16,549 bases of DNA from an uncultured Flavobacteriales bacterium (GTDB lineage: Bacteria; Bacteroidota; Bacteroidia; Flavobacteriales_D; JABDKJ01), in NCBI GenBank assembly GCA_964429805.1, contig CAYSDH010000019.1:1-16549 (forward strand), read 5' to 3'. The notes below the pieces were generated by a model, which saw only the letters and a list, made by a program, of their open reading frames with translations, did no database searches and had not been told where the DNA came from. Made by a program: the position numbers and the translations under genes. Shown piece after piece: positions 400 through 12,832 of the stretch (position 1 is the stretch's first letter; every line of letters starts with the position of its first letter).

Positions 400-1620
400 T
401 CATGCCTCATTCGTATCCTCCACTCGTTTTAATGCGATAAACACGATAATAGTGGCGAGGCCCAGCAGCAAAGCGGCAAGAGCAAATGATGCTCCAGGGA
501 AATAAAACGGTGCCGAGTCTCCTACAAAATATGAAAAGGTCGACATGTATATAGTATAACCGAGCATGGTTGTGATGCTGGTCAGACCAGTGAGAGAGCC
601 CTGCAGATTTCCTTGCTCATTCTCTGGCACCTGATTAGAAATAAGAGACTGGAGCGTTGGCCCGGCTATTCCACCAAGCGCATAAGGTATTAAGAAGGCA
701 TAAAGCATCCACGGTTGCATCGCCATGCTAAAGAATACCATGCCTATGGTCCAAAGACAGAAGCCAATCTTGATGGTTGTTTTCGGTCCCCATTTGTCTA
801 CTGCTTTGCCGATGAGTAAGCCTTGCACTAACGACACCAGAGCACCAACAGCAACTAAGCTCCACCCTATTTCTGCTTCTGACCAGTTAAACGCCTCAAT
901 GGTGAAATAGCTCCACACGGCTGGCAAGACTTGTCCCGCCATGTTGACTAAGAAGAAGGCGAACACGAGCAAGCCTATGCCTGAAAATCGTCTAAGATGA
1001 AACAGCGATACGCCTGGTATCATTTTCGACACGTCAATATCTCTTCGATTTTCAGGCGCCAATGATTCGGGCACAAGGAAAAGACCAAACAGGAAGTTGG
1101 CAAAAGTCAGTCCAGCTGCTATGAGAAAAGGTAGACGAATGTCGACCACTCCAAAAATGCCACCAATGGCGGGGCCAATGATAAAGCCAAGGCCAAAGGC
1201 TGCACCAAGCACTCCAAAGTTTTTGGCTTTGTTTTCTGGGGTAGAGATATCGGCTATGTATGCCGAGGCCACGGTATAACTGGCGCCTGTAAATCCGGCA
1301 ACAAACCTCCCAACAAATAACCAGGCAAGGGTAGGCGCATAGGCATGGAGTAAAAAGTCTATGCTCAGCACAAATAGCGCACTCAGCAGGATTGGCCTAC
1401 GGCCAAATCGGTCACTCAATTCTCCCATAAAGGGAGCAAATAAAAACTGGGTTCCTGCATAGGCCAAGGTCAACCACAACCCATGAATGACCGCCTTATC
1501 AATTCCTTCTCCGGTGAGTTCCATAATCAAAGAAGGAATAACTGGAATGATGACCCCAAAGCCGATCATCTCGACCATGACCGTGATGAAAATGAATAGA
1601 AGCCGTCTGTTATTATTCAC
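400..1620 (-). CDS. MFS transporter, Tet/TCR-like drug:H+ antiporter family
   Basis: The 406-aa ORF has about 12 hydrophobic segments and the MFS signature GELSDRFGRRPILL after TM2. Overall layout (MNNNRR...IPVIPSL...GxLSDRFGRRP...GPxxGG) resembles TetA-class tetracycline efflux pumps. Confidence 0.85.
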   Translation of the reverse strand: MNNNRRLLFIFITVMVEMIGFGVIIPVIPSLIMELTGEGIDKAVIHGLWLTLAYAGTQFLFAPFMGELSDRFGRRPILLSALFVLSIDFLLHAYAPTLAWLFVGRFVAGFTGASYTVASAYIADISTPENKAKNFGVLGAAFGLGFIIGPAIGGIFGVVDIRLPFLIAAGLTFANFLFGLFLVPESLAPENRRDIDVSKMIPGVSLFHLRRFSGIGLLVFAFFLVNMAGQVLPAVWSYFTIEAFNWSEAEIGWSLVAVGALVSLVQGLLIGKAVDKWGPKTTIKIGFCLWTIGMVFFSMAMQPWMLYAFLIPYALGGIAGPTLQSLISNQVPENEQGNLQGSLTGLTSITTMLGYTIYMSTFSYFVGDSAPFYFPGASFALAALLLGLATIIVFIALKRVEDTNEA

Positions 1621-1726: not shown

Positions 1727-3451
1727 CTATTTAATATCCTTCTTCTCCAACCAATCTACACCCTTCGCCAGTTCTACTGAGCTAAATTCTAACTGGATGA
1801 CTCGCCTCTTTTTTTGCTTCGTTATTCGGCCAGACCGGTGCAGTGTTAGTGGTCTAAAAACATGCACTCCACCAGCTCCAACTTCACAGAGTGATGGGCT
1901 ACAGTTTTCTGTGATAAGTGTAATCTCTTCTGGGCTCAACTGTTTCTTGTGTGAGCCCGGCACCACTTCCAGTGCTCCGTTTTTTGCATCAGTGTCATTG
2001 AGGTGGACTCTAATACTGAACATACTTTTTGAGATGTCTAGAGGAGGCAGCACCTTAGTCACGCCATCACTCTCAGTCCAGGCGCGATAGCCTCTGAGGT
2101 TTCTCTTCTTGTCGACATTAATCATGATGTCTTGATGCCACGAGACAAACCAGTTGACATCCTTACTTTTTTCAAAAAGTGTAGCCTTCACCAAAAAAGC
2201 GTTGGGGTCTATTTTCGAGATTATGCGTTTCAGATTTTTATTGAAAAGGAGGTTTTCCAGTGTCGGTATTTCCTTTAGCAGTTGACGGATGCCAGCACTT
2301 TTCTTGCTGCTTTTAGTGACATACTGGTCTACTTGAGTGCCAATCTTGCGCAGTTCACGTCTGCTGTATATATGATTTAGCACACTGCTTCCTCGCTGGG
2401 TGAGGGTCATCATGGCGCGGTTGAGGCCCTTCACACTCAGTTCTGTATTGTAATTATCGACAGCACCTTCTACACGAGTTTTGATTCGTCTTCTGAGCGA
2501 TGCAGGAGATAGCACGTTGACTCCTTCACCAAAGCCCAGTATCTCTTTCTCAAGCTCAAAGTTATGTTGCACCGTTAATCCGATTATAAGTCCATGTGCG
2601 TCTTTGTGTATGGTGCGCTGCGAGTGGTGCAGCGGTTTGGTTATGACATATGGCGCATGCTGATGCGTGAAAAAAAGTTGGATGTCTTCGGCCTCTACAT
2701 TCTCACTGACTGAGACGCCTATCACATCACTAAAGTGCCAGTCCGAGTCAAAGACTTCATCTTCTAGATATACATCATTGCTATGTTTCATACTATGTAT
2801 TCTGTCTAAGGCGAGTGTGACGACTGGTGAGCGCTTCTTTCTCCTCCCGATTAAAAACCATCTGTTTCTAAACTCCTTAAGAAGGTACGGTCTAAATCGA
2901 AAAGAATTTGCCTGCCTCGCCTTAAATGATTGATAGGTGATCTCAATCACCTTTCGCTGAATGATGCTCTGATAGAGCGTGTCCAGATGCTCGAGACCTT
3001 TAAGGTTTTCATTTTTCTCAAAGTCGATGACTGATCGGGTAGACGTTTTTTGAGAATAAATATGGTCTTCTAGTTTTTGAACCATACCGTCTAGTCCGCG
3101 AAAGTGTGAGAATCCTTGAAACTGCTTCATGAATTCTACTGCCTCACTCAGCATGCCAAGGTCCTGTGTGCTGAGTGGAATATTTGTGATGGAATAGTCC
3201 GCGTCTTCATACGTGTAGTATCTCTTGTCAATGACAATAATGGGTGCGTTATACCCCAATTTGTCACTTCGCATGACTTGTATGTCGGCCTGTACGGTGC
3301 GCTTACTTACCCCTTTGTCAATTCCTTCATATTCGTAAAGTGCATCAGAGCAAGCATCGATAAGGTCTTCTAGAGTCCACTGTTTAAAGCGGTTTTGCAA
3401 GCATTTGTCTAGTGTTTTGTATCGTATGAGAGCGTTTCTGTTAACGGGCAT
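1727..3451 (-). CDS. Fusion protein: N-terminal HTH + WYL + WCX regulator module joined to a C-terminal PhyH-like Fe(II)/2-oxoglutarate dioxygenase domain
   Basis: A single uninterrupted 574-aa ORF. Residues ~1-70 look like a DeoR/WYL-type HTH (NALIRYKTLDKCLQ...LEDLIDACSDAL...SKRTVQADIQVM). Residues ~180-250 carry the WYL core (RNRWFLIGRRKKRSPVVTLALDRI). Residues ~290-335 carry a WCX-like tail (GLIIGLTVQHNFELEKEILGFGEGVNVLSPASLRRRI). The C-terminal ~230 aa carry PhyH hallmarks: W-x-WHQD, ALEVVPGSH and a distal H in LTLHRSGRITKQKKRRV. Confidence 0.7.
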   Translation of the reverse strand: MPVNRNALIRYKTLDKCLQNRFKQWTLEDLIDACSDALYEYEGIDKGVSKRTVQADIQVMRSDKLGYNAPIIVIDKRYYTYEDADYSITNIPLSTQDLGMLSEAVEFMKQFQGFSHFRGLDGMVQKLEDHIYSQKTSTRSVIDFEKNENLKGLEHLDTLYQSIIQRKVIEITYQSFKARQANSFRFRPYLLKEFRNRWFLIGRRKKRSPVVTLALDRIHSMKHSNDVYLEDEVFDSDWHFSDVIGVSVSENVEAEDIQLFFTHQHAPYVITKPLHHSQRTIHKDAHGLIIGLTVQHNFELEKEILGFGEGVNVLSPASLRRRIKTRVEGAVDNYNTELSVKGLNRAMMTLTQRGSSVLNHIYSRRELRKIGTQVDQYVTKSSKKSAGIRQLLKEIPTLENLLFNKNLKRIISKIDPNAFLVKATLFEKSKDVNWFVSWHQDIMINVDKKRNLRGYRAWTESDGVTKVLPPLDISKSMFSIRVHLNDTDAKNGALEVVPGSHKKQLSPEEITLITENCSPSLCEVGAGGVHVFRPLTLHRSGRITKQKKRRVIQLEFSSVELAKGVDWLEKKDIK

Positions 3452-3544
3452 TCACTAATAATTTCAAGAAAAATAAAGAAAAATATTTACTACGCAGAAA
3501 GAGTGCGCAGTTACACGTCAGCTTTGTACTGTCAACGGATGAGA

Positions 3545-3590
3545 ACGGCCCCGTTATCAAGTTTTTGCATTTGTAAGATGACGGGGCCAT
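3545..3590. promoter_or_regulatory. Imperfect inverted repeat (14-nt arms, 12/14 complementary, 20-nt AT-rich spacer) 94-139 nt upstream of the WYL-PhyH start; candidate operator
   Basis: ACGGCCCCGTTATC ...aagtttttgcatttgtaa... GATGACGGGGCCAT, read directly from the sequence. It lies in the promoter region of the minus-strand gene that starts at 3451. Confidence 0.3.
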
Positions 3591-3797
3591 ATCAAGACAA
3601 GCGTTCTTTAAATAAGGAAAAGACATTGTACTCGGTGCGCAACACAAGGCACCGAGAACTAAAGACGATGTATGGAAGGGTATCGACAGACCGGATGAGG
3701 GTCTCTGTATGGCCCCGTAGTATGATCTCGCTCTGCGATGTCATGTGCTGCTGGTCGAAATCAGTCCTATATCACCATGCTCTGTGGGTCGGAGGTT

Positions 3798-3940
3798 CGA
3801 TTCCTCCCTGGATGTGAAATCCAGTAGTTCAGCTAGGTTAGAACAACAGAATGGAAAACGCGGGTTCGAGCCCCGCCTCGACATCAATCGAGTAGCTCAG
3901 TTGGTAGAGCACTACACTTTTAATGTAGTGATACGTGAAA
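3798..3940 (+). pseudogene. Cluster of degenerate tRNA-like fragments: two T-arm plus 3'-acceptor remnants and a 5' half resembling tRNA-Lys(TTT)
   Basis: GGAGGTTCGATTCCTCC+CTGGATG (3798-3824). GTTCAGCTAGGTTAGAAC D-arm ... GCGGGTTCGAGCCCCGC+CTCGACA (3829-3893), with an anticodon arm about 7 nt too short. Then TCAAT followed by CGAGTAGCTCAGTTGGTAGAGCAC TACAC-CTTTTAA-TGTAG (3898-3940), which lacks a T-arm. The short linkers (T-CAAT) match the spacing in the intact array at 5558-5784. No fragment folds into a complete cloverleaf. Confidence 0.4.
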
Positions 3941-4253
3941 TGAAAATTCACAAATCAAAAGGTCTGACTTCGCCTTAAGTAAGTCAAAAAAGGAATAAAG
4001 CAATGTCTTCTGTCGAGTGTGAATTTCATACATGACAATCCGCAAAAGACCGTGTAACGGAGGATGCGCTTTTTGGCATCTATCACTTCAGCACTCAGAG
4101 TCCTTGTCACGCATGCTCACACAGTGTATATGCCAACTTGGATATGAATGCTCAACTGACAGAGAAAGAAAAGCTCAATCCAGCGCACCTCTCTAGTGGA
4201 TGAAGACTTGCTGAGTTCCTGTATTAAAAAATTAAAGAGTAAAAACAAATAAG

Positions 4254-5348
4254 ATGAATAGAGTAAGAATCAATCAAGGTAAAGTCGGTGTAGTCACCTA
4301 TAAAAGAGACTATAACAGACTGATAACAGCCGGTACACACTGGTTGAGTTGGGGCGAATCTTACGTACTGTATGACGTGAGTGTCATTTATAGCGCGGAT
4401 AAGGATTTCGACCTGAGAATGAGGCGTCCTGCTTTTGCTGGGCGTGTAGAGCTTATCGAAGTCAATGATGGTGAATTGGCCATGGTCCAGTTGCACGGAG
4501 CGTTTGTGAGACTGCTCGAAGTTGGTAGATACTTCTTCTTTAAAAGTCATCTCGAGTTCAAGGTGACGATGATTGACATCACTTCCACAAAGCAGATTGC
4601 TGGTTGGAATTCTGAGTTGCTTAACAGAACCGATTTGGTGCGGCATCAGCGAGTCTATGCGGTAGAGCCTTTTGAAAAAGGACTCATGTTCATCGATGGA
4701 GATTTTGTCGGCTTGCTCGACAAGGGTATCCACAGATTTTGGAAAAATGCGTCTGTGATTCAAGTCTTCAAGGCTGATATGAGACAGATGACTCAAGAGG
4801 TTAATGGTCAAGAAATCTTGACTAAAGACAAGGCGGCCATCAGAATCAATTTCAGCACGCAGTACCACATCACAGATGTGCAAAAGGCGCTCTTGGAGAA
4901 TAAAGATCATGAGAAGCAGCTCTACATGTTGACTCAATTGGCGTTGAGGTCTTATGTCGGTGGGCTTACGCTTGACGAGTTGTTGGAAAACAAAGAGTCA
5001 GTGAGTGACTACATCGTGAGCAGATTGAAAACAGAAATCTCTGATCTTGGTATCGCAGTAGATCACTGTGGTATAAAGGATGTCATTCTTCCAGGAGAAA
5101 TGAAGGAGATCATGAATCAAGTCATGATTGCTCAAAAGCAGGCTCAGGCCAACACCATCACAAGACGTGAAGAAACAGCATCTACGAGAAGCTTGCTCAA
5201 CACGGCCAAGCTGATGGAAGACAACCAGATGCTCTATAAGTTGAAGGAAATGGAGTACTTGGAAAGGATCGCAGACAGAATCGGTGACATCACCGTCTCT
5301 GGCAACGGTCAAGTAGTAGATCAGCTCAGGCAGATCTTTGTGAAGTAA
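4254..5348 (+). CDS. SPFH/band-7 (stomatin/prohibitin-like) domain protein, apparently soluble (no N-terminal TM helix)
   Basis: The 364-aa ORF has an SPFH core: QEILTKDKAAIRINFSTQYHITDVQKALLE ... LRSYVGGLTLDELLENKESV ... LGIAVDHCGIKDVILPGEMKEIMNQVMIAQKQAQANTITRREETAS, followed by a coiled-coil-like tail. The first ~140 aa have no hydrophobic segment. The opposite-strand ORF 4224-4937 is regarded as spurious. Confidence 0.75.
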   Translation: MNRVRINQGKVGVVTYKRDYNRLITAGTHWLSWGESYVLYDVSVIYSADKDFDLRMRRPAFAGRVELIEVNDGELAMVQLHGAFVRLLEVGRYFFFKSHLEFKVTMIDITSTKQIAGWNSELLNRTDLVRHQRVYAVEPFEKGLMFIDGDFVGLLDKGIHRFWKNASVIQVFKADMRQMTQEVNGQEILTKDKAAIRINFSTQYHITDVQKALLENKDHEKQLYMLTQLALRSYVGGLTLDELLENKESVSDYIVSRLKTEISDLGIAVDHCGIKDVILPGEMKEIMNQVMIAQKQAQANTITRREETASTRSLLNTAKLMEDNQMLYKLKEMEYLERIADRIGDITVSGNGQVVDQLRQIFVK

Positions 5349-5355
5349 AGAAAGT

Positions 5356-5379
5356 GGGCCCCGAAAAGGGTCGGGGCCC
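5356..5379 (+). terminator. GC-rich hairpin (9-bp stem GGGCCCCGA/TCGGGGCCC, 6-nt loop) directly after the SPFH stop and 7 nt before tRNA-Lys
   Basis: The stem-loop is visible in the sequence. No U-run follows it (the sequence continues atatatg), so it may be an insulator or processing hairpin rather than a classical intrinsic terminator. Confidence 0.4.
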
Positions 5380-5385
5380 ATATAT

Positions 5386-5458
5386 GTATTCGTGGCTCAA
5401 TTGGTAGAGCACCGTGCTTTTAACACGGGGGTTGAAGGTTCGATTCCTTCCGGGTACA
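5386..5458 (+). tRNA. tRNA-Lys (anticodon TTT)
   Basis: Cloverleaf read by hand: acceptor GTATTCG/CGGGTAC (two G-U pairs), D-arm GCTC-AATTGGTA-GAGC, anticodon stem CCGTG/CACGG, loop CTTTTAA, T-arm GAAGG-TTCGATT-CCTTC, discriminator A. CCA is encoded (5459-5461). Confidence 0.85.
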
Positions 5459-5493
5459 CCAAAATAATAATTGTGTCTATTGCCCAGTGCATA

Positions 5494-5547
5494 AGACTTC
5501 GCTCATAGAGCGAAGTCTGTCCTGAGCTTGTTGAGGGGATTCCTTTT
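5494..5547. repeat. Conserved tRNA-array spacer element containing the hairpin AGACTTCGCTC-ata-GAGCGAAGTCT; an inverted homolog lies at 12651-12700
   Basis: An 11-bp perfect stem with a 3-nt loop at 5494-5518. The downstream stretch ...tcctgagcttgttgaggggattcctttt is about 84% identical (42/50) to the reverse complement of 12651-12700. Confidence 0.6.
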
Positions 5548-5557
5548 AGGCACATGT

Positions 5558-5629
5558 GTATCCGTAGCTCAGTGGTAGAGCGTTTGTTTGTTAAGCAAAG
5601 GGGCGGAGGTTCGAACCCTCCCGGATACT
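5558..5629 (+). tRNA. tRNA-Asn (anticodon GTT)
   Basis: Acceptor GTATCCG/CGGATAC, D-arm GCTC-AGTGGTA-GAGC, anticodon stem TTTGT/GCAAA, loop TTGTTAA, T-arm GGAGG-TTCGAAC-CCTCC. Confidence 0.8.
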
Positions 5630-5633
5630 CAAT

Positions 5634-5705
5634 GGTCTATTGGTCCAATGGCTAGGATTCCTCACTGTCGATGAGGTGGAAAGGGTTCGATTCCCTTATA
5701 GACCG
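5634..5705 (+). tRNA. tRNA-Asp (anticodon GTC)
   Basis: Acceptor GGTCTAT/ATAGACC, D-arm GTCC-AATGGCTA-GGAT, anticodon stem CCTCA/TGAGG, loop CTGTCGA, T-arm AAGGG-TTCGATT-CCCTT, discriminator G. It sits only 4 nt after tRNA-Asn. Confidence 0.85.
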
Positions 5706-5713
5706 CAATTTAC

Positions 5714-5784
5714 TGCCCGGTCGTCTAATGGCAGGACACCTCACTTTGACTGAGATTGTAGAGGTTCGAGTCCTCTCTGGGCAA
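5714..5784 (+). tRNA. tRNA-Gln (anticodon TTG)
   Basis: Acceptor TGCCCGG/CTGGGCA (one G-U pair), D-arm GTCT-AATGGCA-GGAC, anticodon loop CTTTGAC, T-arm AGAGG-TTCGAGT-CCTCT. There is one C-A mismatch at the top of the anticodon stem. It sits 8 nt after tRNA-Asp. Confidence 0.75.
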
Positions 5785-5862
5785 CATAGAGTCAAAATAA
5801 ATTTTACTGCGCATAAAGACTGCGTAGTGCCTCTTTTAATTTGTACTCAGAATGAAGAAATC

Positions 5863-7266
5863 ATGAAAGCACAAGAATTATTGACACTCGGTTATCCCGA
5901 ATCAAAGAGCATAGGAATCGCATTGACTCTTTCAGGTCAAATGAAAGAATGGACTAAAAAAGATCAATTGAAGGAATTCAAAAGAATCTTGGATCGTCCG
6001 ATTAATTATCTTAAAGATCCTTTGTTTAGTGAGTTAGCCAAATCGCTCATCGAGCCTGAAGCGCCTGAATTAGGTGTGCTCCGAGACAAGGCTTTGGACT
6101 ATACTATCTATGGTTCAGAAGGAATAGAAAACGGGGCACTGGAGCAAATCAGAATAGCCATGTCCTTGCCAGTAGCAAAGGCAGGAGCACTTATGCCTGA
6201 CGCCCATCAGGGTTATGGACTTCCTATTGGTGGAGTTCTCGCCACAGAAAATGCCGTGATACCTTATGGCGTGGGAGTAGACATAGGTTGCCGAATGTGT
6301 ATGAGCATATACGAGTTGCCTGCCTCTGCGACCAGAGAGCGAAAAGAAGAGTTGAAGAAAATGCTTCTGACTAATGCAAAGTTTGGTCGTGAAACATTTA
6401 AGCGGCCTAAAGATCATGAAGTGCTGAGCAACTCGCTCTTTGATGAGATACCTCTTTTGAAGACCTTGAAGAAAAAGGCCTACTCACAGATTGGTTCATC
6501 GGGCGGTGGAAATCACTTTGTAGAATTTGGTACGGTAGAGATTTTTGAAGAGGACGATCAGATTGGCCTAAAGCCTGGAAAGTACCTCTCGCTATTGACG
6601 CATTCTGGTTCTAGAGGATTTGGTGCGACCATTGCTAATCACTACACACGATTGGCACGAGAACTTTGTCCTCTTCCTTCAAGAGCCAAGAACTTGGCTT
6701 GGCTAGACTTGGATACAGAAGCTGGTCAAGAGTATTGGTTAGCCATGAATCTTGCCGGTGATTACGCCTCGGCATGTCATCATCAGATTCATGAGCGCAT
6801 GGCGGTCGGCTTAAGAACCACTCCGTTGGCCATGATTGAGAACCATCACAATTTTGCCTGGAAGGAAAAAGATGTTGATGGAAACCAAATCATAGTGCAC
6901 CGTAAAGGTGCCACGCCAGCTGGTGAGGGAGTTTTGGGAATCATTCCTGGTTCGATGACCGCTCCGGGTTTCATAGTCAGAGGAAAAGGTAATCATGAGT
7001 CCATTAACTCTGCCTCTCATGGTGCCGGTAGACAGATGTCAAGATCAAGAGCGAAGTCAAGCATCAAGCGATCTGACATGAATGACCTTCTTGGAAAAGT
7101 AGGTGTCGAAGTCATCGGTTCTGGTCTTGATGAAGCGCCACAGGCCTATAAGGATATCCATCAAGTAATGGAGCACCAAAAAGACCTGGTTGATGTCATT
7201 GGCAAGTTCCAGCCAAAGCTTGTCAGAATGTGTGGTGATAAAGAGTTGAGAAAAATCGACTCGTAA
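5863..7266 (+). CDS. rtcB: RtcB family RNA 3'-phosphate/2',3'-cyclic phosphate-5'-OH ligase
   Basis: RtcB motifs are present: GALMPDAHQGYGLPIGGV, GVDIGCRM, SSGGGNHF, HSGSRGFG, NHHNF, HRKGAT, IPGSMTAPGFIV and SHGAGRQMSRS. The ATG at 5863 was chosen because the 192 nt of the ORF-track ORF before it overlap the tRNA-Gln and tRNA-Asp genes. Confidence 0.9.
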   Translation: MKAQELLTLGYPESKSIGIALTLSGQMKEWTKKDQLKEFKRILDRPINYLKDPLFSELAKSLIEPEAPELGVLRDKALDYTIYGSEGIENGALEQIRIAMSLPVAKAGALMPDAHQGYGLPIGGVLATENAVIPYGVGVDIGCRMCMSIYELPASATRERKEELKKMLLTNAKFGRETFKRPKDHEVLSNSLFDEIPLLKTLKKKAYSQIGSSGGGNHFVEFGTVEIFEEDDQIGLKPGKYLSLLTHSGSRGFGATIANHYTRLARELCPLPSRAKNLAWLDLDTEAGQEYWLAMNLAGDYASACHHQIHERMAVGLRTTPLAMIENHHNFAWKEKDVDGNQIIVHRKGATPAGEGVLGIIPGSMTAPGFIVRGKGNHESINSASHGAGRQMSRSRAKSSIKRSDMNDLLGKVGVEVIGSGLDEAPQAYKDIHQVMEHQKDLVDVIGKFQPKLVRMCGDKELRKIDS

Positions 7267-7324: not shown

Positions 7325-8101
7325 TTGGTCTCAATGCCTAGTAAAATGAAAGAGGAAATAATGCAGGTGCTACAGCGCTTGCAAGAACAAACTGGAGTAA
7401 ACGTGTTGCTCGCTTGCGAAACAGGTTCAAGGGCATGGGGCTTTCCATCACCTGACAGTGATTATGACGTGAGGTTGATATACATGCATGAGTCGGCATG
7501 GTACAGCACACTCTTTGAGGCGAAAGACAGTCTGGAGTATATGTCAGATGATGGTGAGATAGACCTTACGGGCTGGGAGCTGCGCAAGTCTTTGCGCCTT
7601 CTGTGTAAGTCTAACGCTTCGCTCTTAGAACGACTTCAGTCACCCATAGTCTATTCGGAAAACGAAGTGTTCATGAAAAAGTTGAGGGAGCTAGTTCCTC
7701 AATTCTACTCCAAGCGAACCACGCTATATCACTATTTAAGCTTAGCCAAAAAAAGTTTGGCCCTCTGTGCCGATGACGAATACCGCTTGAAGACCTTTTT
7801 TTATGCGCTCAGAGCTACATGTGCTTGCCGATACATCTACTCCTTTGACTGTTCTCCGCCAATAGTTTTTCAAGAGATGCTTGATGGAATTGACATGAAA
7901 GATTCGCTTAAAACTCGGATACTTGAGCTTGTGAGTATGAAAGCGAATTTGAGTGAATCATATATGCATACAGGTGAACAAGAACTGATAGACTGGATGA
8001 GTCTAGCATTAGATCAATCCGAGCAAGAAGCCGATTCATTAGAAGTTTCTAATGCTGACGTGAAGGAACTAGATAAACTCTTATTTGAATCCATATCATG
8101 A
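7325..8101 (+). CDS. Pol-beta superfamily nucleotidyltransferase (COG3541-like 'predicted nucleotidyltransferase'), copy 1
   Basis: It carries the N-terminal NTase signature LLACETGSRAWGFPSPDSDYDVRLIYMH (G[GS]x9-13 D-x-D). It is about 258 aa with an alpha-helical C-terminal half. The start is uncertain; in-frame ATGs also occur at codons 4, 8 and 13. Confidence 0.7.
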   Translation: MVSMPSKMKEEIMQVLQRLQEQTGVNVLLACETGSRAWGFPSPDSDYDVRLIYMHESAWYSTLFEAKDSLEYMSDDGEIDLTGWELRKSLRLLCKSNASLLERLQSPIVYSENEVFMKKLRELVPQFYSKRTTLYHYLSLAKKSLALCADDEYRLKTFFYALRATCACRYIYSFDCSPPIVFQEMLDGIDMKDSLKTRILELVSMKANLSESYMHTGEQELIDWMSLALDQSEQEADSLEVSNADVKELDKLLFESIS

Positions 8102-9153
8102 CCATCTCTGAGTTAAAATCGAGTAATTGTATCGTGTTTGAATGCCTGAGTGGGAGTAAGGCACAAGGCTTAGCCACTGCCGATTCTGATACCGATATAC
8201 GGGGAGTATTTGTACTTCCCGCCAAGCAATTTTTCGGCAATTCTTACCTCCCTCAAGTAAGTGATGAGCGAAATGATACCGTGTATTATGAACTCGGACG
8301 GTTCGTGGAGTTACTGTCTAAGAACAATCCTAATGCGCTGGAGCTACTGTGCACTCCCGATGAGTTCGTGCTGAAGAGAGCGCCTATGATGGATTTAATT
8401 CCACCAGCGTTGTTTATGAGTAAACGCTGTCATAAAACATTTGTCGGATACGCATCTACGCAGATTGGAAAAGCCAAAGGCCTGAATAAAAAAATAAATA
8501 ATCCTATGCCTAAAACACGGCCAACGGTACTTGATTTTTGTTTTGTCACCGACCAGCGCCATACTAAAAGTTTAACTCAGCTGCTCGAAGAGAACAGCTG
8601 GAGGCAAGAAGATTGCGGCTTGAGTAAAATGGCCAAGATGCCTGACATGTATGCGCTTTTTCATCATTCTGAAAGCATCTATGAAGGCATTTTTAAGGGT
8701 GATAACGCCAATGATGTCTGCTTGAGTAGTATCCCCAAAGAGGAAAAGATGGTGGCCTATGTGCACTTCAGAAAGTCTGCATATTCAAAGTACTGCAGGA
8801 AGCACAGAGAGTATTGGGATTGGGTAGAGAAAAGAAATGAGAGTAGATATCAATCCACAATATCGCATGGTAAGCAGTATGATGCAAAGAATATGATGCA
8901 CACCATCCGTCTGCTTCGCATGGCCAAGGAGATTGCTGAAACGGGAGCGGTTGTTGTAAAAAGGGAAGACAGAGATGAGTTGTTAGCCATACGGTCAGGT
9001 GAGTTCTCGTATGAAAAGCTGATTGAAATGTCAGAAGCATTGATGTCAGAAATTGAATGTTCTTTTGCTACATCAGACCTTCCTGCAACACCTGATTTAA
9101 AAGCGATAAATCAAGCGCTTGTGCAGATTAGAACAGACTATTACGGACATTAA
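8098..9153 (+). CDS. Pol-beta superfamily nucleotidyltransferase, copy 2 (351 aa), translationally coupled to copy 1
   Basis: Signature IVFECLSGSKAQGLATADSDTDIRGVFV. Its start codon overlaps the upstream stop (ATGA at 8098-8101). It has a longer C-terminal region than copy 1, and the two are only distantly related paralogs. Confidence 0.7.
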   Translation: MTISELKSSNCIVFECLSGSKAQGLATADSDTDIRGVFVLPAKQFFGNSYLPQVSDERNDTVYYELGRFVELLSKNNPNALELLCTPDEFVLKRAPMMDLIPPALFMSKRCHKTFVGYASTQIGKAKGLNKKINNPMPKTRPTVLDFCFVTDQRHTKSLTQLLEENSWRQEDCGLSKMAKMPDMYALFHHSESIYEGIFKGDNANDVCLSSIPKEEKMVAYVHFRKSAYSKYCRKHREYWDWVEKRNESRYQSTISHGKQYDAKNMMHTIRLLRMAKEIAETGAVVVKREDRDELLAIRSGEFSYEKLIEMSEALMSEIECSFATSDLPATPDLKAINQALVQIRTDYYGH

Positions 9154-9393: not shown

Positions 9394-9462
9394 GGAGATT
9401 CAGGTAAGCGTATTTAGGCTCAATTGCATCTAGGAGGGGTAAATCATCAAATCCCATCAAAA

Positions 9463-12400
9463 ATGAAAATTGAATCAAACTCCATATTCGCCAAAAGTAT
9501 TACCCCTTTTCTGAGTGCATTGTTCTTGCTCTTTTCTGTGCAAGCAAATGCCTGTGCAGATATTGTTCAGTTCCAATTTACTAATGGAACTCAAACAATT
9601 CTCATCTCAGATGGTGCAGCATATAACCTAGATGATTTACCAGATGATTTTTATCTAGAGGCAGTTGTCAATGGCAATGAAGAAAGTGTTTCTTTTCACG
9701 TCTCTTCATCAAACAACTCCTTCACCTACAGCGTAGTTGAGAATTATGTTCCTTACACTTTTCCAGCTGGAAACGGGGCATGGCATCTTGGAGATGGTCA
9801 TTTTAGTGTTTCCGCCAGTGCTTATTCTCACCCTTATGCTGGTGGCACTTTTTGTGATCATGAGTCAATAAACTTTACGCTGTCTGAAGGAGTGGAGACG
9901 TGCTCAGCACTTGCCGGAACACTCAGTGGAGGCGGAGATATTTGCAATATCAATGAGACGCACTTGACGGCAACTCCAAACGGAGATGCGGTTATTCCTA
10001 ACGGATATCAGACAGTCTTTGTGCTTACTCAAGGTTCTGAGTTAGTTATAATAGGAGCGGGAGCCGAAGCTGATTTTACAGTCGCTGAAGATGGTATGTA
10101 CACCATCCACTCTTTAGTGTATGACCCTTCTACTTTAGATTTGAGTATAGTCGTACCAGGTGTGACTACTGGTTTTGATGTCTTTGGATTATTGCAAGAT
10201 GGAGGCGGAGATATCTGCGCTTCACTAGATGTGGCCGGAGCACAGTTTCAGGTCGCAAATCCAAGTGCGGGTACCTTGACAGCAAATCAAAGTGAAGTGC
10301 CACTTGATGGAGGTGCAGCAACAATATCAGCCACTGCCAATGGAGACATCAATGTGCCAATGGGTTACTCTTCAATTTTCGTGTTGACTCAAGGAAGCGA
10401 GTTGACTATTGTTAATGCAGGAGGCGAGCCAAGTTTTGAGGTAACAGAATCAGGAGACTACACCATCCACACCTTAGTCTTTGACCCAACAACTTTAGAC
10501 CTGAGTATAGTTGAGCTAGGAGTAACTACAGGAGTAGATGTCTTCGGCCTTATCGTGCCAGGTGGAGGTGCAATCTGTGCCGATCTTGATGTGGCCGGGG
10601 CGCCTATTACAGTCTCTGCAGATGAGTCATGCTCAGCACATGCCGGAACACTCAGCGGAGGAGGAGATATTTGCAATATCAATGAGACGCACTTAACGGC
10701 AACACCAAACGGAGATGCAGTTATTCCTAACGGATATCAGACAGTCTTTGTGCTTACTCAAGGTTCTGAGTTAGTTATAATAGGAGCGGGAGCCGAAGCT
10801 GATTTTACAGTCGCTGAAGATGGTATGTACACCATCCACTCTTTAGTGTATGACCCTTCTACTTTAGATTTGAGTATAGTCGTACCAGGTGTGACTACTG
10901 GTTTTGATGTCTTTGGATTATTGCAAGATGGAGGCGGAGATATCTGCGCTTCACTAGATGTGGCCGGAGCACAGTTTCAGGTCGCAAATCCAAGTGCGGG
11001 TACCTTGACAGCAAATCAAAGTGAAGTGCCACTTGATGGAGGTGCAGCAACAATATCAGCCACTGCCAATGGAGACATCAATGTGCCAATGGGTTACTCT
11101 TCAATTTTCGTGTTGACTCAAGGAAGCGAGTTGACTATTGTTAATGCAGGAGGCGAGCCAAGTTTTGAGGTAACAGAATCAGGAGACTACACCATCCACA
11201 CCTTAGTCTTTGACCCAACAACTTTAGACCTGAGTATAGTTGAGCTAGGAGTAACTACAGGAGTAGATGTCTTCGGCCTTATCGTGCCAGGTGGAGGTGC
11301 AATCTGTGCCGATCTTGATGTGGCCGGGGCGTCAATCACAGTAGTTTCAGCAGATGTGTGTACAGCTTTTGCAGGTACTTTAACGGCCGATGCTGATGAA
11401 TATGCATGGAGTGGAAGCCCCATTACCGTGTCAGCTACCCCAAATGGTGATGTCAATGTACCAAACGGATACGGATCAATATTTGTGCTTACGCAAGGAC
11501 CAGACTTGGTCATAGTTGGAGCAGGAGCTTCGCCAGAATTTGAAATCAATCAGCCTGGGCAGTTCATCATTCATACGTTAGTCTATGACCCGAATACACT
11601 TGACCTTGGAATAGTAGAACTTGGTGTGACGACAGGTTTTGATGTCTTTGGACTTATAGTGCCAGGTGGAGGTTCCATTTGTGCAGATCTTGATGTTGCA
11701 GGAGCAGCTATTGTGGTTGTTGAAACTGACGGATGCGCAGCAGATGCCGGAACATTAGTCAGTCATCCAACCATCACATGTTTAAACGAAGGCACTGGTG
11801 ATATTTTTGCCCAAGAGGACATTGAGCCTGTAATTCCAGCTGGTTATGAAGTGCTGTATGTACTTACGAATGCATTCGGACTAACTATTGAAGATGTCAG
11901 CGCCTCACCAGAGTTTACAGTTGAGCACGCTGGGTTTTACAGAGTGCATACTCTCGTCTATGACCCTGCAACGCTAGATTTGAGCATCGTAGAGTTTGGC
12001 GTGACTTCAGGTTTTGATGTCAATACTCTTCTGATTCAAGGTGGTGGCGAAATTTGTGCATCGCTCTTATTGCATGCCCCATTGACGCTCGTTCTTCCAG
12101 AATATTTCTGCAACACATTCGTCTGGCACTTCCTCAACAACAAAGCGGCAGACGCAGTTGACCTCGAATCTATAGTTGATTCATACGAAGATTATGCCTC
12201 ATTTGAGAAGTCTCTTATGGTCATGAATGTGAGTGTTTATCCAAATCCTGTGACAGATGTTTTGTCCATAGACTTGCAGCTCTTAGATGATGAGCTTATC
12301 CAGATTCAGGTCATAGACCTTAGTGGGAGAGTAGTCATGGACAGAAGAATAAACAATGCTGAAGGGTTAAATCAATTAGACCTTTCTTCACTGTCAGACG

Positions 12401-12468
12401 GTCAGTACGTATTAAACATTCAGTCACAGTTTAGAGCATTCACTAAATCCATTCAAGTGAGTAAATAA
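9463..12468 (+). CDS. Secreted cell-surface repeat protein with a T9SS (Por) C-terminal sorting domain
   Basis: The start was moved to M14 of the track ORF, giving a signal peptide MKIESNSIFAKSITPFLSALFLLFSVQANA. The C-terminal ~80 aa match the T9SS CTD (NVSVYPNPVTDVLSIDLQ...GQYVLNIQ...). The central part consists of about six copies of a ~120-aa domain (GY..FVLTQG..L.I..AG....F.V.E.G.YTIH.LV.DP.TLDLSIV..GVTTG.DVFGL...GG.IC..LDVAGA). Confidence 0.8.
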   Translation: MKIESNSIFAKSITPFLSALFLLFSVQANACADIVQFQFTNGTQTILISDGAAYNLDDLPDDFYLEAVVNGNEESVSFHVSSSNNSFTYSVVENYVPYTFPAGNGAWHLGDGHFSVSASAYSHPYAGGTFCDHESINFTLSEGVETCSALAGTLSGGGDICNINETHLTATPNGDAVIPNGYQTVFVLTQGSELVIIGAGAEADFTVAEDGMYTIHSLVYDPSTLDLSIVVPGVTTGFDVFGLLQDGGGDICASLDVAGAQFQVANPSAGTLTANQSEVPLDGGAATISATANGDINVPMGYSSIFVLTQGSELTIVNAGGEPSFEVTESGDYTIHTLVFDPTTLDLSIVELGVTTGVDVFGLIVPGGGAICADLDVAGAPITVSADESCSAHAGTLSGGGDICNINETHLTATPNGDAVIPNGYQTVFVLTQGSELVIIGAGAEADFTVAEDGMYTIHSLVYDPSTLDLSIVVPGVTTGFDVFGLLQDGGGDICASLDVAGAQFQVANPSAGTLTANQSEVPLDGGAATISATANGDINVPMGYSSIFVLTQGSELTIVNAGGEPSFEVTESGDYTIHTLVFDPTTLDLSIVELGVTTGVDVFGLIVPGGGAICADLDVAGASITVVSADVCTAFAGTLTADADEYAWSGSPITVSATPNGDVNVPNGYGSIFVLTQGPDLVIVGAGASPEFEINQPGQFIIHTLVYDPNTLDLGIVELGVTTGFDVFGLIVPGGGSICADLDVAGAAIVVVETDGCAADAGTLVSHPTITCLNEGTGDIFAQEDIEPVIPAGYEVLYVLTNAFGLTIEDVSASPEFTVEHAGFYRVHTLVYDPATLDLSIVEFGVTSGFDVNTLLIQGGGEICASLLLHAPLTLVLPEYFCNTFVWHFLNNKAADAVDLESIVDSYEDYASFEKSLMVMNVSVYPNPVTDVLSIDLQLLDDELIQIQVIDLSGRVVMDRRINNAEGLNQLDLSSLSDGQYVLNIQSQFRAFTKSIQVSK
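9901..10629 (+). repeat. Tandem direct repeat unit 1 (729 bp, encoding two domain copies)
   Basis: 9990-10601 is 100% identical to 10719-11330 (612 bp, checked line by line). The first ~90 nt differ at 6 positions. Confidence 0.95.
10630..11358 (+). repeat. Tandem direct repeat unit 2 (729 bp)
   Basis: See unit 1. Identity drops after 11330 but homology continues into the next, diverged domain copy. Confidence 0.95.
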
Positions 12469-12566
12469 ACCTCTGGACTAATGTCCTTATTGAGGCCCCT
12501 TGCATTTTTGCAAGGGGCCTTTTATTGATGTGTCTTGGTAAATTAGGACAGCTCGTATGCCTACTG

Positions 12567-12639
12567 TTGATCTGGCTGGACTTGAACCAGCGACCTCTTG
12601 CGTATAAGGCAATTGCTCTGACCACTGAGCTACAGATCA
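12567..12639 (-). tRNA. tRNA-Ile-like with anticodon TAT (reads AUA)
   Basis: Minus-strand sequence: TGATCTG-TA-GCTC-AGTGGTCA-GAGC-A-ATTGC-CTTATAC-GCAAG-AGGTC-GCTGG-TTCAAGT-CCAGC-CAGATCA-A. The backbone (GAGGTCGCTGGTTCAAGTCCAGC) resembles bacterial tRNA-Ile. Loop positions 34-36 are T-A-T with U33 and A37. There is an A-G mismatch at 27-43. Confidence 0.65.
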
Positions 12640-12750: not shown

Positions 12751-12760
12751 TTTTGTTTTG

Positions 12761-12832
12761 TCACGCCTAGGGGAATCGAACCCCTGCCTACTCATAGAAA
12801 GTGAGCCGTCCTGACCGTTAGACCAAGGCGCG
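12761..12832 (-). tRNA. tRNA-Glu (anticodon TTC)
   Basis: Minus-strand sequence: CGCGCCT-TG-GTCT-AACGGTCA-GGAC-G-GCTCA-CTTTCTA-TGAGT-AGGC-AGGGG-TTCGATT-CCCCT-AGGCGTG-A. The D-arm and T-arm closely resemble bacterial tRNA-Glu. T at position 37 is atypical. Confidence 0.75.

Follow-up and report, generated by a model that had tools for sequence, protein, structure and literature searches.

A recurrent fusion of a WYL-type regulator with a PhyH-type oxygenase as a probable regulator of RNA-repair genes in Bacteroidota

RtcR of Proteobacteria and TrcR of Anabaena are the only regulators of the RNA ligase gene rtcB that we found described. RtcR, which senses tRNA fragments, is an activator composed of a CARF domain and a sigma-54 AAA+ domain, and TrcR is a repressor of the ribbon-helix-helix type. 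Its targets are rtcB, a slipin (SPFH) gene and a silent tRNA array inducible by inhibitors of translation (PMC10272220, PMC8421152). A system consisting of an SPFH/Band-7 protein, a tRNA associated with band-7 (b7a-tRNA), RtcB and RlaP is known from comparative genomics (Burroughs and Aravind, 2016, as cited in bioRxiv 10.1101/312249 and PMC7824862). WYL regulators are known from DNA-damage control and defense, and several have a scaffold of a winged helix-turn-helix (wHTH), a WYL and a WCX domain. DriD, PafBC and CapW are sensors of single-stranded DNA. DriD binds over the -35 position, always equally far from the -10 element, and acts on the operon that diverges from its own gene (PMC13004042). 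Here we describe a gene that encodes a wHTH-WYL-WCX regulator and a PhyH-type Fe(II)/2-oxoglutarate (2OG) dioxygenase domain in one polypeptide. It lies on a 16,549-nt stretch of DNA from an uncultured Flavobacteriales bacterium (contig CAYSDH010000019.1, assembly GCA_964429805.1), the whole of which is referred to below as the window.

We consider the fusion protein, with a probability of roughly 0.75, to be a transcription factor devoted to a regulon of RNA repair and translational stress in Bacteroidota, in which an oxygenase has been added to the wHTH-WYL-WCX scaffold. By analogy, we read it as the Bacteroidota counterpart of RtcR and TrcR. The N-terminal half, the predicted operator and the gene neighborhood are common to orthologs whether their oxygenase is intact, dead or missing, suggesting that the conserved function is the regulation of RNA-repair genes and that the oxygenase is an add-on. 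A preliminary description of the window had recognized the fusion and was right in that observation. Its functional story, in which the protein and two downstream genes form a unit for sensing, modification and export, should be replaced, and the conserved linkage is to divergent upstream RNA-repair genes, which it had not considered.

The domain assignments of the preliminary description were borne out by Pfam, in which all three domains scored above the gathering cut-offs (WYL, 50.6 bits against 21.8; WCX, 42.2 against 23.9; PhyH, 41.7 against 22). The PhyH match covered residues 418-550 and profile positions 86-212 of 213. The protein also matched the PADLOC WYL model (E 8e-26). No Pfam HTH match was obtained for the N-terminus, and no NCBIfam model matched the protein. 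In an AlphaFold2 (AF2) model built with 54 homologs (mean predicted local distance difference test score, pLDDT, 83.9), the N-terminus forms helices at residues 2-19, 27-42 and 50-61 and a beta hairpin at residues 71-81, as expected of a modeled winged HTH, and most 10-residue blocks of the oxygenase domain have a pLDDT of ~85-95. The top Foldseek matches of the N-terminal half were DriD (E 4.5e-13) and PafBC, aligned over ~336-350 columns. A profile of the fusion family matched the DriD and PafBC chains in the WCX region. The C-terminal half adopts a double-stranded beta-helix fold, with Foldseek E values of ~1e-11 to FtmOx1, SnoN, SnoK, AviO1 and others and target template modeling scores of at most 0.73. 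Its nearest folds are FtmOx1, SnoN/SnoK, proline hydroxylase, AviO1, TlxI and AsqJ, all of them small-molecule PhyH-type oxygenases. The two halves meet at residues ~335-340 (nt 2434-2446), where the junction had been placed before.

The homolog search that had been proposed, for recurrence of the fusion or for separate genes, found that the fusion recurs with the same junction. The best 120 database clusters were all of ~570-600 aa and 55-63% identical over 95-100% of the query; WYL, WCX and PhyH were present together in 119 of them, and every named source among them was a member of the Bacteroidota. A scan of one genome per species gave 80 homolog loci (81 with the window). The protein is a genuine single polypeptide, as claimed, its fusion recurring in more than 120 protein clusters and in 43 of the 81 species-level loci. 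Loci were assigned to three classes after translating each gene to its stop codon. Class A proteins (n = 43, including the window protein) are of ~570-584 aa and contain the oxygenase domain. Class B proteins (n = 16; ~519-548 aa) contain a degenerate oxygenase, most of them with a deletion of ~30 residues that removes D441, and all 16 have lost at least one of H439, D441, H538 and R549. Class C proteins (n = 20; ~336-349 aa) stop directly after WCX. Orthologs lacking the oxygenase thus number 20, or 21 when a locus whose open reading frame (ORF) is cut by a nonsense codon (L018) is counted. Orthologs with a missing or degenerate oxygenase retain 56-72% identity in the N-terminal half, the same operator and the same neighbors; the Spirosomataceae orthologs, for instance, have no oxygenase domain and the same operator and neighbors. 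In a rough neighbor-joining tree of the N-terminal halves, class B is nested at least four times among class A and class C falls mostly in one clade. Hence the fusion looks ancestral in the family, with repeated decay and loss of the oxygenase.

We examined the genes around the 81 loci. In 71 loci the upstream flank extends to 5 kb or more, and 63 of these have RtcB, SPFH or RlaP upstream on the opposite strand. Two of the eight exceptional loci carry other RNA-repair genes, one Hen1 and the other Ro60 with a T4-type RNA ligase, and one further locus has a T4-type RNA ligase paired with its RlaP. Unbiased clustering of the neighbors recovered RtcB (58 loci), SPFH (46), RlaP (9), an RlaP-like protein (8), a PrfH-like RF-1 (8) and Ro60 (7). 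All these clustered RNA-repair neighbors are upstream and divergent, with the exception of one SPFH copy (SPFH, 45 of 46). In an independent metagenome sample, RtcB and SPFH were again found upstream of the fused versions. Repair cassettes across the entire range appear to share this regulator family.

An alignment across loci of the 130 nt that precede the start codon revealed a motif, CTGCGCA-GTCTTTT-TGCGCAG (palindrome CTGCGCA-N7-TGCGCAG), that is common to classes A, B and C. The core pattern TRCGCA-N7-TGCGYA has two exact matches in the window (3491-3509 and 5808-5826), against 0.00 expected, and was found in 71 of the 80 homolog loci; it was absent from six standalone-oxygenase loci. In the window, a -7-like box, CTTTG (3522-3526), lies 12 nt beyond operator 1 and points at the unit of non-coding RNA (ncRNA) and SPFH, and ATTTG (5839-5843) lies at the same offset of 12 nt beyond operator 2, followed by the RtcB start at 5863. 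Across loci, 76 of 99 sites are preceded by CAAAG at a distance of exactly 17 nt, and the repair-gene strand reads TGCGYA-N12-CTTTG. A second operator copy lies directly before RtcB or a T4-type or other RNA ligase in many loci. In some loci the ncRNA-SPFH unit is no longer next to the regulator; of four such relocated units checked, two (in L055 and L061) have an exact operator copy at their side. CTTTG with the preceding A resembles the -7 element of Bacteroidota, which we take to be TAnnTTTG; if CTTTG is read in this way, the palindrome sits where the -33 element would be. No TTTG -33 motif was found within the operator on the regulated strand. Features of the window are compiled in Table 1.

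Table 1. Positions of the fusion gene, its domains and associated features in the window
Feature	Position	Strand	Evidence
Tet(A/B/C)-like major facilitator superfamily (MFS) protein gene	400..1620	-	NCBIfam, 318.7 bits
wHTH-WYL-WCX-PhyH fusion gene, 574 aa, ATG start	1727..3451	-	ORF, Pfam, full-length homologs, AF2 model
PhyH-type Fe(II)/2OG dioxygenase domain, residues ~340-574	1730..2434	-	PF05721, E 2e-10; Foldseek; residue conservation
Oxygenase triad and R549: H439; D441; H538; R549	2135..2137; 2129..2131; 1838..1840; 1805..1807	-	
WCX domain, residues 254-330	2462..2692	-	PF25583, E 1e-10
WYL domain, residues 154-222	2786..2992	-	PF13280, E 2e-13
N-terminal winged HTH, residues ~1-90	3182..3451	-	AF2 model, Foldseek
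Predicted operator 1, CTACGCAGAAAGAGTGCGCAG, in the shared intergenic region	3490..3510	+	Core pattern match
Non-coding RNA region, tandem permuted tRNA-like modules	3530..3960 (approximate)	+	Rfam, nhmmer
SPFH/Band-7 protein gene	4254..5348	+	PF01145, E 5e-31
Four tRNA genes, Lys-UUU, Asn-GUU, Asp-GUC and Gln-UUG	5386..5785	+	ARAGORN; Rfam tRNA, 57-72 bits
Predicted operator 2, CTGCGCATAAAGACTGCGTAG, between tRNA-Gln and the RtcB start	5807..5827	+	Core pattern match
RtcB RNA ligase, 467 aa, in-frame ATG at 5863	5863..7266	+	PF01139, E 6e-83
RlaP nucleotidyltransferase	7325..8101	+	PF10127, E 1.4e-68
Second, divergent RlaP-like nucleotidyltransferase	8098..9153	+	PF10127, E 3.5e-21, N-terminal part only

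The divergent unit of the window includes an ncRNA region as well as protein genes. Two YrlA-like modules (3783-3850 and 3851-3918) gave sub-threshold Rfam scores of 37.6 and 35.8 bits, and a tRNA-like module (3893-3951) scored 33.9 bits against the Rfam tRNA cut-off of 29 and has a Lys-like UUU anticodon loop. nhmmer detected conservation at the DNA level of window positions 3460-3960 in 35 loci, which include members of each of the three classes; where relocated cases were checked, the ncRNA region adjoins SPFH and not the regulator. The region is probably the "band-7-associated tRNA" that Burroughs and Aravind predicted, as reported in bioRxiv 10.1101/312249. The window unit thus has all parts of the SPFH/Band-7 system (SPFH, tRNA-like ncRNA, RtcB and RlaP). 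It departs from the system as cited in two ways: its ncRNA is a tandem of permuted modules that resemble tRNA, and the unit also contains genuine tRNA genes.

Embedded tRNA genes lie on the same strand as SPFH and RtcB, with up to 17 in a row (17 each in L019 and L023, eight in L017, and seven each in L007, L021 and L055), the commonest being Pro-UGG, Tyr-GUA, Phe-GAA, Lys-UUU and Asp-GUC. They were found in 19 of 45 loci with the long class A form (a count that includes four without a triad residue), as against 2 of the remaining 36 (Fisher p = 2e-4, without correction for phylogeny). Such arrays beside RtcB parallel the stress-induced array that is co-regulated with rtcB in Anabaena (PMC8421152). 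In the window, the mechanically called RtcB ORF start at 5671 would overlap two tRNA genes. A strong GC-rich hairpin, GGGCCCCGAAAAGGGTCGGGGCCC, is located between the SPFH stop codon and tRNA-Lys (5354-5381) and lacks a distinct T-run; the transcript predicted to start upstream of the ncRNA could be processed or attenuated at this site.

We investigated the active site of the oxygenase domain. The motifs noticed earlier, WHQD, VVPGSH and a distal histidine, correspond to W438-H439-Q440-D441, V496-V497-P498-G499-S500-H501 and H538, which are followed by R549/R550. All three residues of the HxD...H triad (H439, D441 and H538) are present in the window protein, and the triad is kept in 169 of 169 standalone relatives. 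The triad and R549 are whole in 39 of the 43 class A proteins. R549/R550 are invariant in class A and align with the RR of FtmOx1 in a phmmer alignment; by homology, they would provide the residue that binds the C5 carboxylate of 2OG. Across class A and the 169 standalone relatives, 19 positions are near-invariant (R389, K422, K428, W438, H439, Q440, D441, W458, R481, H483, D485, N491, G492, H501, H538, S540, R549, R550 and H553), suggesting that the chemistry is probably the same in the fused and the standalone oxygenases. From its residues, the window oxygenase looks catalytically competent.

The fused domains differ from the standalone relatives in surface charge. Their median isoelectric point (pI) is 9.46 and their net charge +9 (class B, 9.28 and +5), against a pI of 7.2-7.7 and a net charge of 0 to +1 in the standalone relatives, and acid-to-base reversals relative to the latter occur at positions 353, 365 and 368, in the first helices of the domain. 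Residues 364-380 form a basic helix. A search with the C-terminal 239 aa against 1.84 billion representative proteins returned 1,299 relatives at E <= 1e-10; the best 150 of these were mostly standalone proteins of ~225-255 aa, many from Bacteroidota. The closest genuine relatives of the domain are standalone, uncharacterised proteins of ~240 aa from Bacteroidota. The comparison suggests that the oxygenase was recruited from standalone ~240-aa enzymes with the same active site and gained a strongly basic surface.

No consistent gene partner of the standalone relatives was found by exact look-ups and a metagenome scan of 80 loci. Their contexts included PorZ-PhyH-RecO and a cyclic nucleotide monophosphate (cNMP)-binding regulator followed by a hypothetical gene, PhyH and a Macro-domain gene. 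In nine loci the standalone PhyH gene directly follows CcmF, and in seven it directly follows a family-3 O-methyltransferase gene (L119, L128 and related metagenome loci). The latter seven share many other neighbors and so probably represent one lineage. The hydroxylase and the O-methyltransferase might act sequentially on one substrate.

From the observed domains, recurrence of the fusion, gene linkage, operator motif and geometry, and residue conservation, we infer how DNA binding, ligand sensing, direction of regulation and catalysis might fit together. A dimer of the regulator would bind the palindrome CTGCGCA-N7-TGCGCAG. A first predicted promoter, P1, would drive the tRNA-like ncRNA, SPFH and the four tRNA genes, and a second, P2, would drive RtcB, RlaP and the second RlaP. 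Operator 1 would also overlap the divergent promoter of the regulator itself, implying autoregulation. By analogy with DriD, PafBC, CapW and RtcR, the WYL/WCX module may sense a single-stranded nucleic-acid damage product. Activation is slightly favored over de-repression, because of the analogy with DriD and PafBC and because the operator contains no TTTG -33 motif on the regulated strand. The oxygenase would be an accessory module and not the core of the switch, most likely adding an enzymatic or ligand-processing step that depends on O2, Fe and 2OG at the nucleic-acid-bound regulator.

Several observations weigh against this reading. The triad or the 2OG arginine has been lost in 20 of the 59 domain-bearing orthologs (16 of class B and four of class A), indicating that catalysis is dispensable for the conserved role. 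The window protein itself carries two substitutions at otherwise near-invariant positions, D485N (nt 1997-1999) and H553Q (nt 1793-1795), and its activity may therefore be altered; position 485 is D in 42 of 43 fused and 164 of 169 standalone proteins, and position 553 is H in 42 of 43 and 163 of 169. The closest folds of the oxygenase in Foldseek act on small molecules. To our knowledge, every WYL regulator characterised so far is a sensor of single-stranded DNA and none is a sensor of RNA. A repressor would agree just as well with an operator over the -33 position, and CapW and BrxR are WYL repressors. Finally, 6 of the 71 loci have no recognizable RNA-repair gene within 10 kb, and two of these six, from Aureivirga, carry an AlkD-like DNA-alkylation repair gene instead. 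In both, this gene is directly upstream and divergent of the fusion (L031, 9277-9936, minus strand; L040, 9278-9937, minus strand); it is confirmed by Pfam in L031 and assigned by matching position and length in L040. Neither RNA-repair genes nor an exact operator match was found in L031 and L040.

The rival explanations concern the fusion itself, its downstream neighbors and the role of the oxygenase. An assembly or sequencing error at the junction, either an indel or an absent stop codon, might have joined two separate genes, and one locus offers a point in favor: in L018 (10001-11707), an in-frame TAT-to-TAA change replaces the invariant Y334, exactly at the WCX/oxygenase junction, in a gene otherwise nearly identical to the fused gene of L013. 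This stop codon is either a snapshot of the origin of a short form or a sequencing error in a metagenome-assembled genome. Over 120 independent clusters and another 42 species-level loci share an uninterrupted fusion joined at the same point, the junction residues are conserved and AF2 models an unbroken helix across the junction, all of which argues against an artifact; such wide recurrence excludes chance read-through or assembly error, and we attach practically no weight to this explanation. The preliminary description had proposed that the protein senses and hydroxylates a xenobiotic or signal that is exported with the help of a Tet-like MFS pump and a secreted DUF2147 protein. The two genes do lie co-directionally downstream of the fusion gene, as it stated, with 106 bp and no terminator-like site on that strand between the fusion gene and the MFS gene; the nearest folds of the PhyH domain are small-molecule oxygenases, and the Anabaena translational-stress regulon contains an exporter operon (PMC10272220). 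The MFS gene may be co-transcribed with the fusion gene in the window genome. As a conserved unit, however, the pump partnership was rejected by tblastn, by unbiased neighbor clustering and by the operator search. Relatives of the window MFS or DUF2147 protein were found within 10 kb of the homolog in 0 of 80 species-level loci, no downstream gene family in the clustering of all neighboring ORFs occurs in more than 7 of 81 loci, and no operator copy was found near the MFS gene in a window search allowing up to three mismatches. The MFS protein scores below the NCBIfam Tet equivalog cut-off (318.7 against 475 bits), and the DUF2147 protein gave 92 bits, its gene running past the window end. An export unit is thus very improbable. 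Membership in a defense system was also rejected, PADLOC giving generic WYL matches for the regulator and none for SPFH, RtcB, RlaP or the MFS protein.

The oxygenase may be read in three ways: as a small-molecule enzyme that is induced along with the regulon, as an enzyme whose substrate is RNA, tRNA or the bound signal, or as a mainly structural or sensory module. Its fold neighbors and an active site in common with neutral standalone enzymes hint at a small molecule, and its basic surface and its link with embedded tRNA genes hint at nucleic acid. An RNA-repair or tRNA-directed enzyme, such as an oxidative dealkylase or a tRNA nucleoside hydroxylase, tethered to the regulator in the manner of Ada to couple contact with damaged RNA to induction, would agree with the strongly basic fused domains and their charge reversals, with the excess of embedded tRNA genes in class A, with the AlkD-like gene that adjoins two loci and with the seven standalone relatives that follow an O-methyltransferase gene. 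Set against it are the small-molecule fold neighbors, with no AlkB, TET or JBP type among the 50 best Foldseek matches, and an active site identical to that of near-neutral standalone enzymes whose contexts have no RNA link; moreover, the tRNA association is confounded by taxonomy and the O-methyltransferase pairing is probably of a single lineage. We regard an RNA-directed enzyme as unlikely. Somewhat better placed, though still tentative, is a mainly non-catalytic or sensory module that serves for oligomerization, as a nucleic-acid-binding surface or for gating of the regulator by O2, Fe(II) or 2OG, and is not an enzyme with its own substrate. It would account for the retention of a still basic domain in all 16 class B proteins and the four class A proteins that have lost the triad or the arginine, for the emergence of class B at least four times in the rough tree, for the many class B carriers among facultatively anaerobic Marinilabiliales or Bacteroidales, and for the Spirosomataceae orthologs that do without the domain. 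Against it, 39 of 43 class A proteins keep the triad, the arginine and the substrate-pocket residues of the standalone enzymes, which argues for purifying selection on catalysis where the domain is intact. An Ada-like enzyme-regulator, whose oxygenase would oxidize a nucleic-acid or nucleotide signal held by WYL/WCX, or damaged tRNA, seems a doubtful proposition at present. Ada of Escherichia coli is a conceptual parallel only, in that a damage-processing enzyme and a regulator are joined in one polypeptide, with no homology.

The preferred reading, a transcription factor of an RNA-repair regulon with an added oxygenase, can be set beside the described systems. With DriD of Caulobacter and PafBC of Actinobacteria, the fusion shares the wHTH-WYL-WCX scaffold over its N-terminal 335 aa and, as predicted for it, a palindromic target that covers the -35/-33 position, keeps a constant spacing to the -10/-7 element and acts on a divergent operon. 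Unlike them, it has an additional C-terminal oxygenase of ~235 aa, and its regulon would be one of RNA repair and not of DNA repair. Identity to DriD and PafBC is 12-15%, with similarity detectable by hidden Markov models over residues 154-330 only; for mapping the DriD ligand contacts by sequence, the match, limited to residues 213-330 (E ~1e-4), was too weak. The fusion would do the same job as RtcR and TrcR, the control of rtcB and associated genes, but both are unrelated to it and have no enzyme domain. Neither a CARF nor a sigma-54 AAA+ domain was matched by Pfam or NCBIfam in the fusion protein, and its likeness to RtcR is that of a functional analogue only. The small-molecule PhyH oxygenases have the same double-stranded beta-helix fold, HxD...H triad and arginine as the fused domain, which is only 12-21% identical to them and differs in being compact (~235 aa) and strongly basic and in its attachment to a transcription factor. 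No study of a WYL-oxygenase fusion was found in full-text literature searches, the scope of which did not include Burroughs and Aravind (2016), and the fusion is absent from the main text of the PafBC architecture survey; the earlier impression of an undescribed architecture was therefore supported. Genome pipelines already label it automatically, for example as "YafY / ectoine hydroxylase-related dioxygenase" by the Joint Genome Institute (JGI).

Further genes were noted around the loci. The PrfH-like RF-1 occurs in L014, L021, L022, L024, L029, L032, L053 and L080, accompanied by a lysine-rich protein of ~180 aa without a Pfam match. Ro60/TROVE genes occur in L002, L007, L011, L014, L041, L060 and L080, and the Hen1 gene is in L025. 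Past the repair genes of the window lie a gene whose 1014-aa product carries a C-terminal sorting domain of type IX secretion (9424-12468, plus strand) and, at ~3.5 kb, tRNA-Ile(UAU) beside tRNA-Glu(UUC) (12566-12639 and 12760-12832, both minus strand). The sorting-domain protein supports the view that the window is chromosomal DNA of a member of the Bacteroidota. A tRNA-Ile with the anticodon UAU is uncommon in bacteria; another is found within a 10-gene array in L014.

The induction of RNA repair outside the Proteobacteria is largely unknown. The fusion family would supply an rtcB regulator for Bacteroidota, with a predicted operator and two predicted promoters per locus, and the precision of the predicted operator makes the regulation directly testable. 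It would extend WYL regulators from the control of DNA damage and phage defense to RNA repair, and would place inducible tRNA gene arrays linked to RtcB in a second phylum. It is also the first case that we found of a WYL transcription factor with an enzyme domain, and the repeated decay of the oxygenase provides a natural experiment on what the domain contributes. If the Ada-like coupling were true, induction of RNA repair and of spare tRNAs in aerobic Bacteroidota would depend on O2, Fe(II) and 2OG, and the coupling would have been abandoned in those anaerobes and other lineages whose domain is dead or missing. The family would then represent the first oxygenase-gated response to RNA damage and a new class of PhyH substrate.

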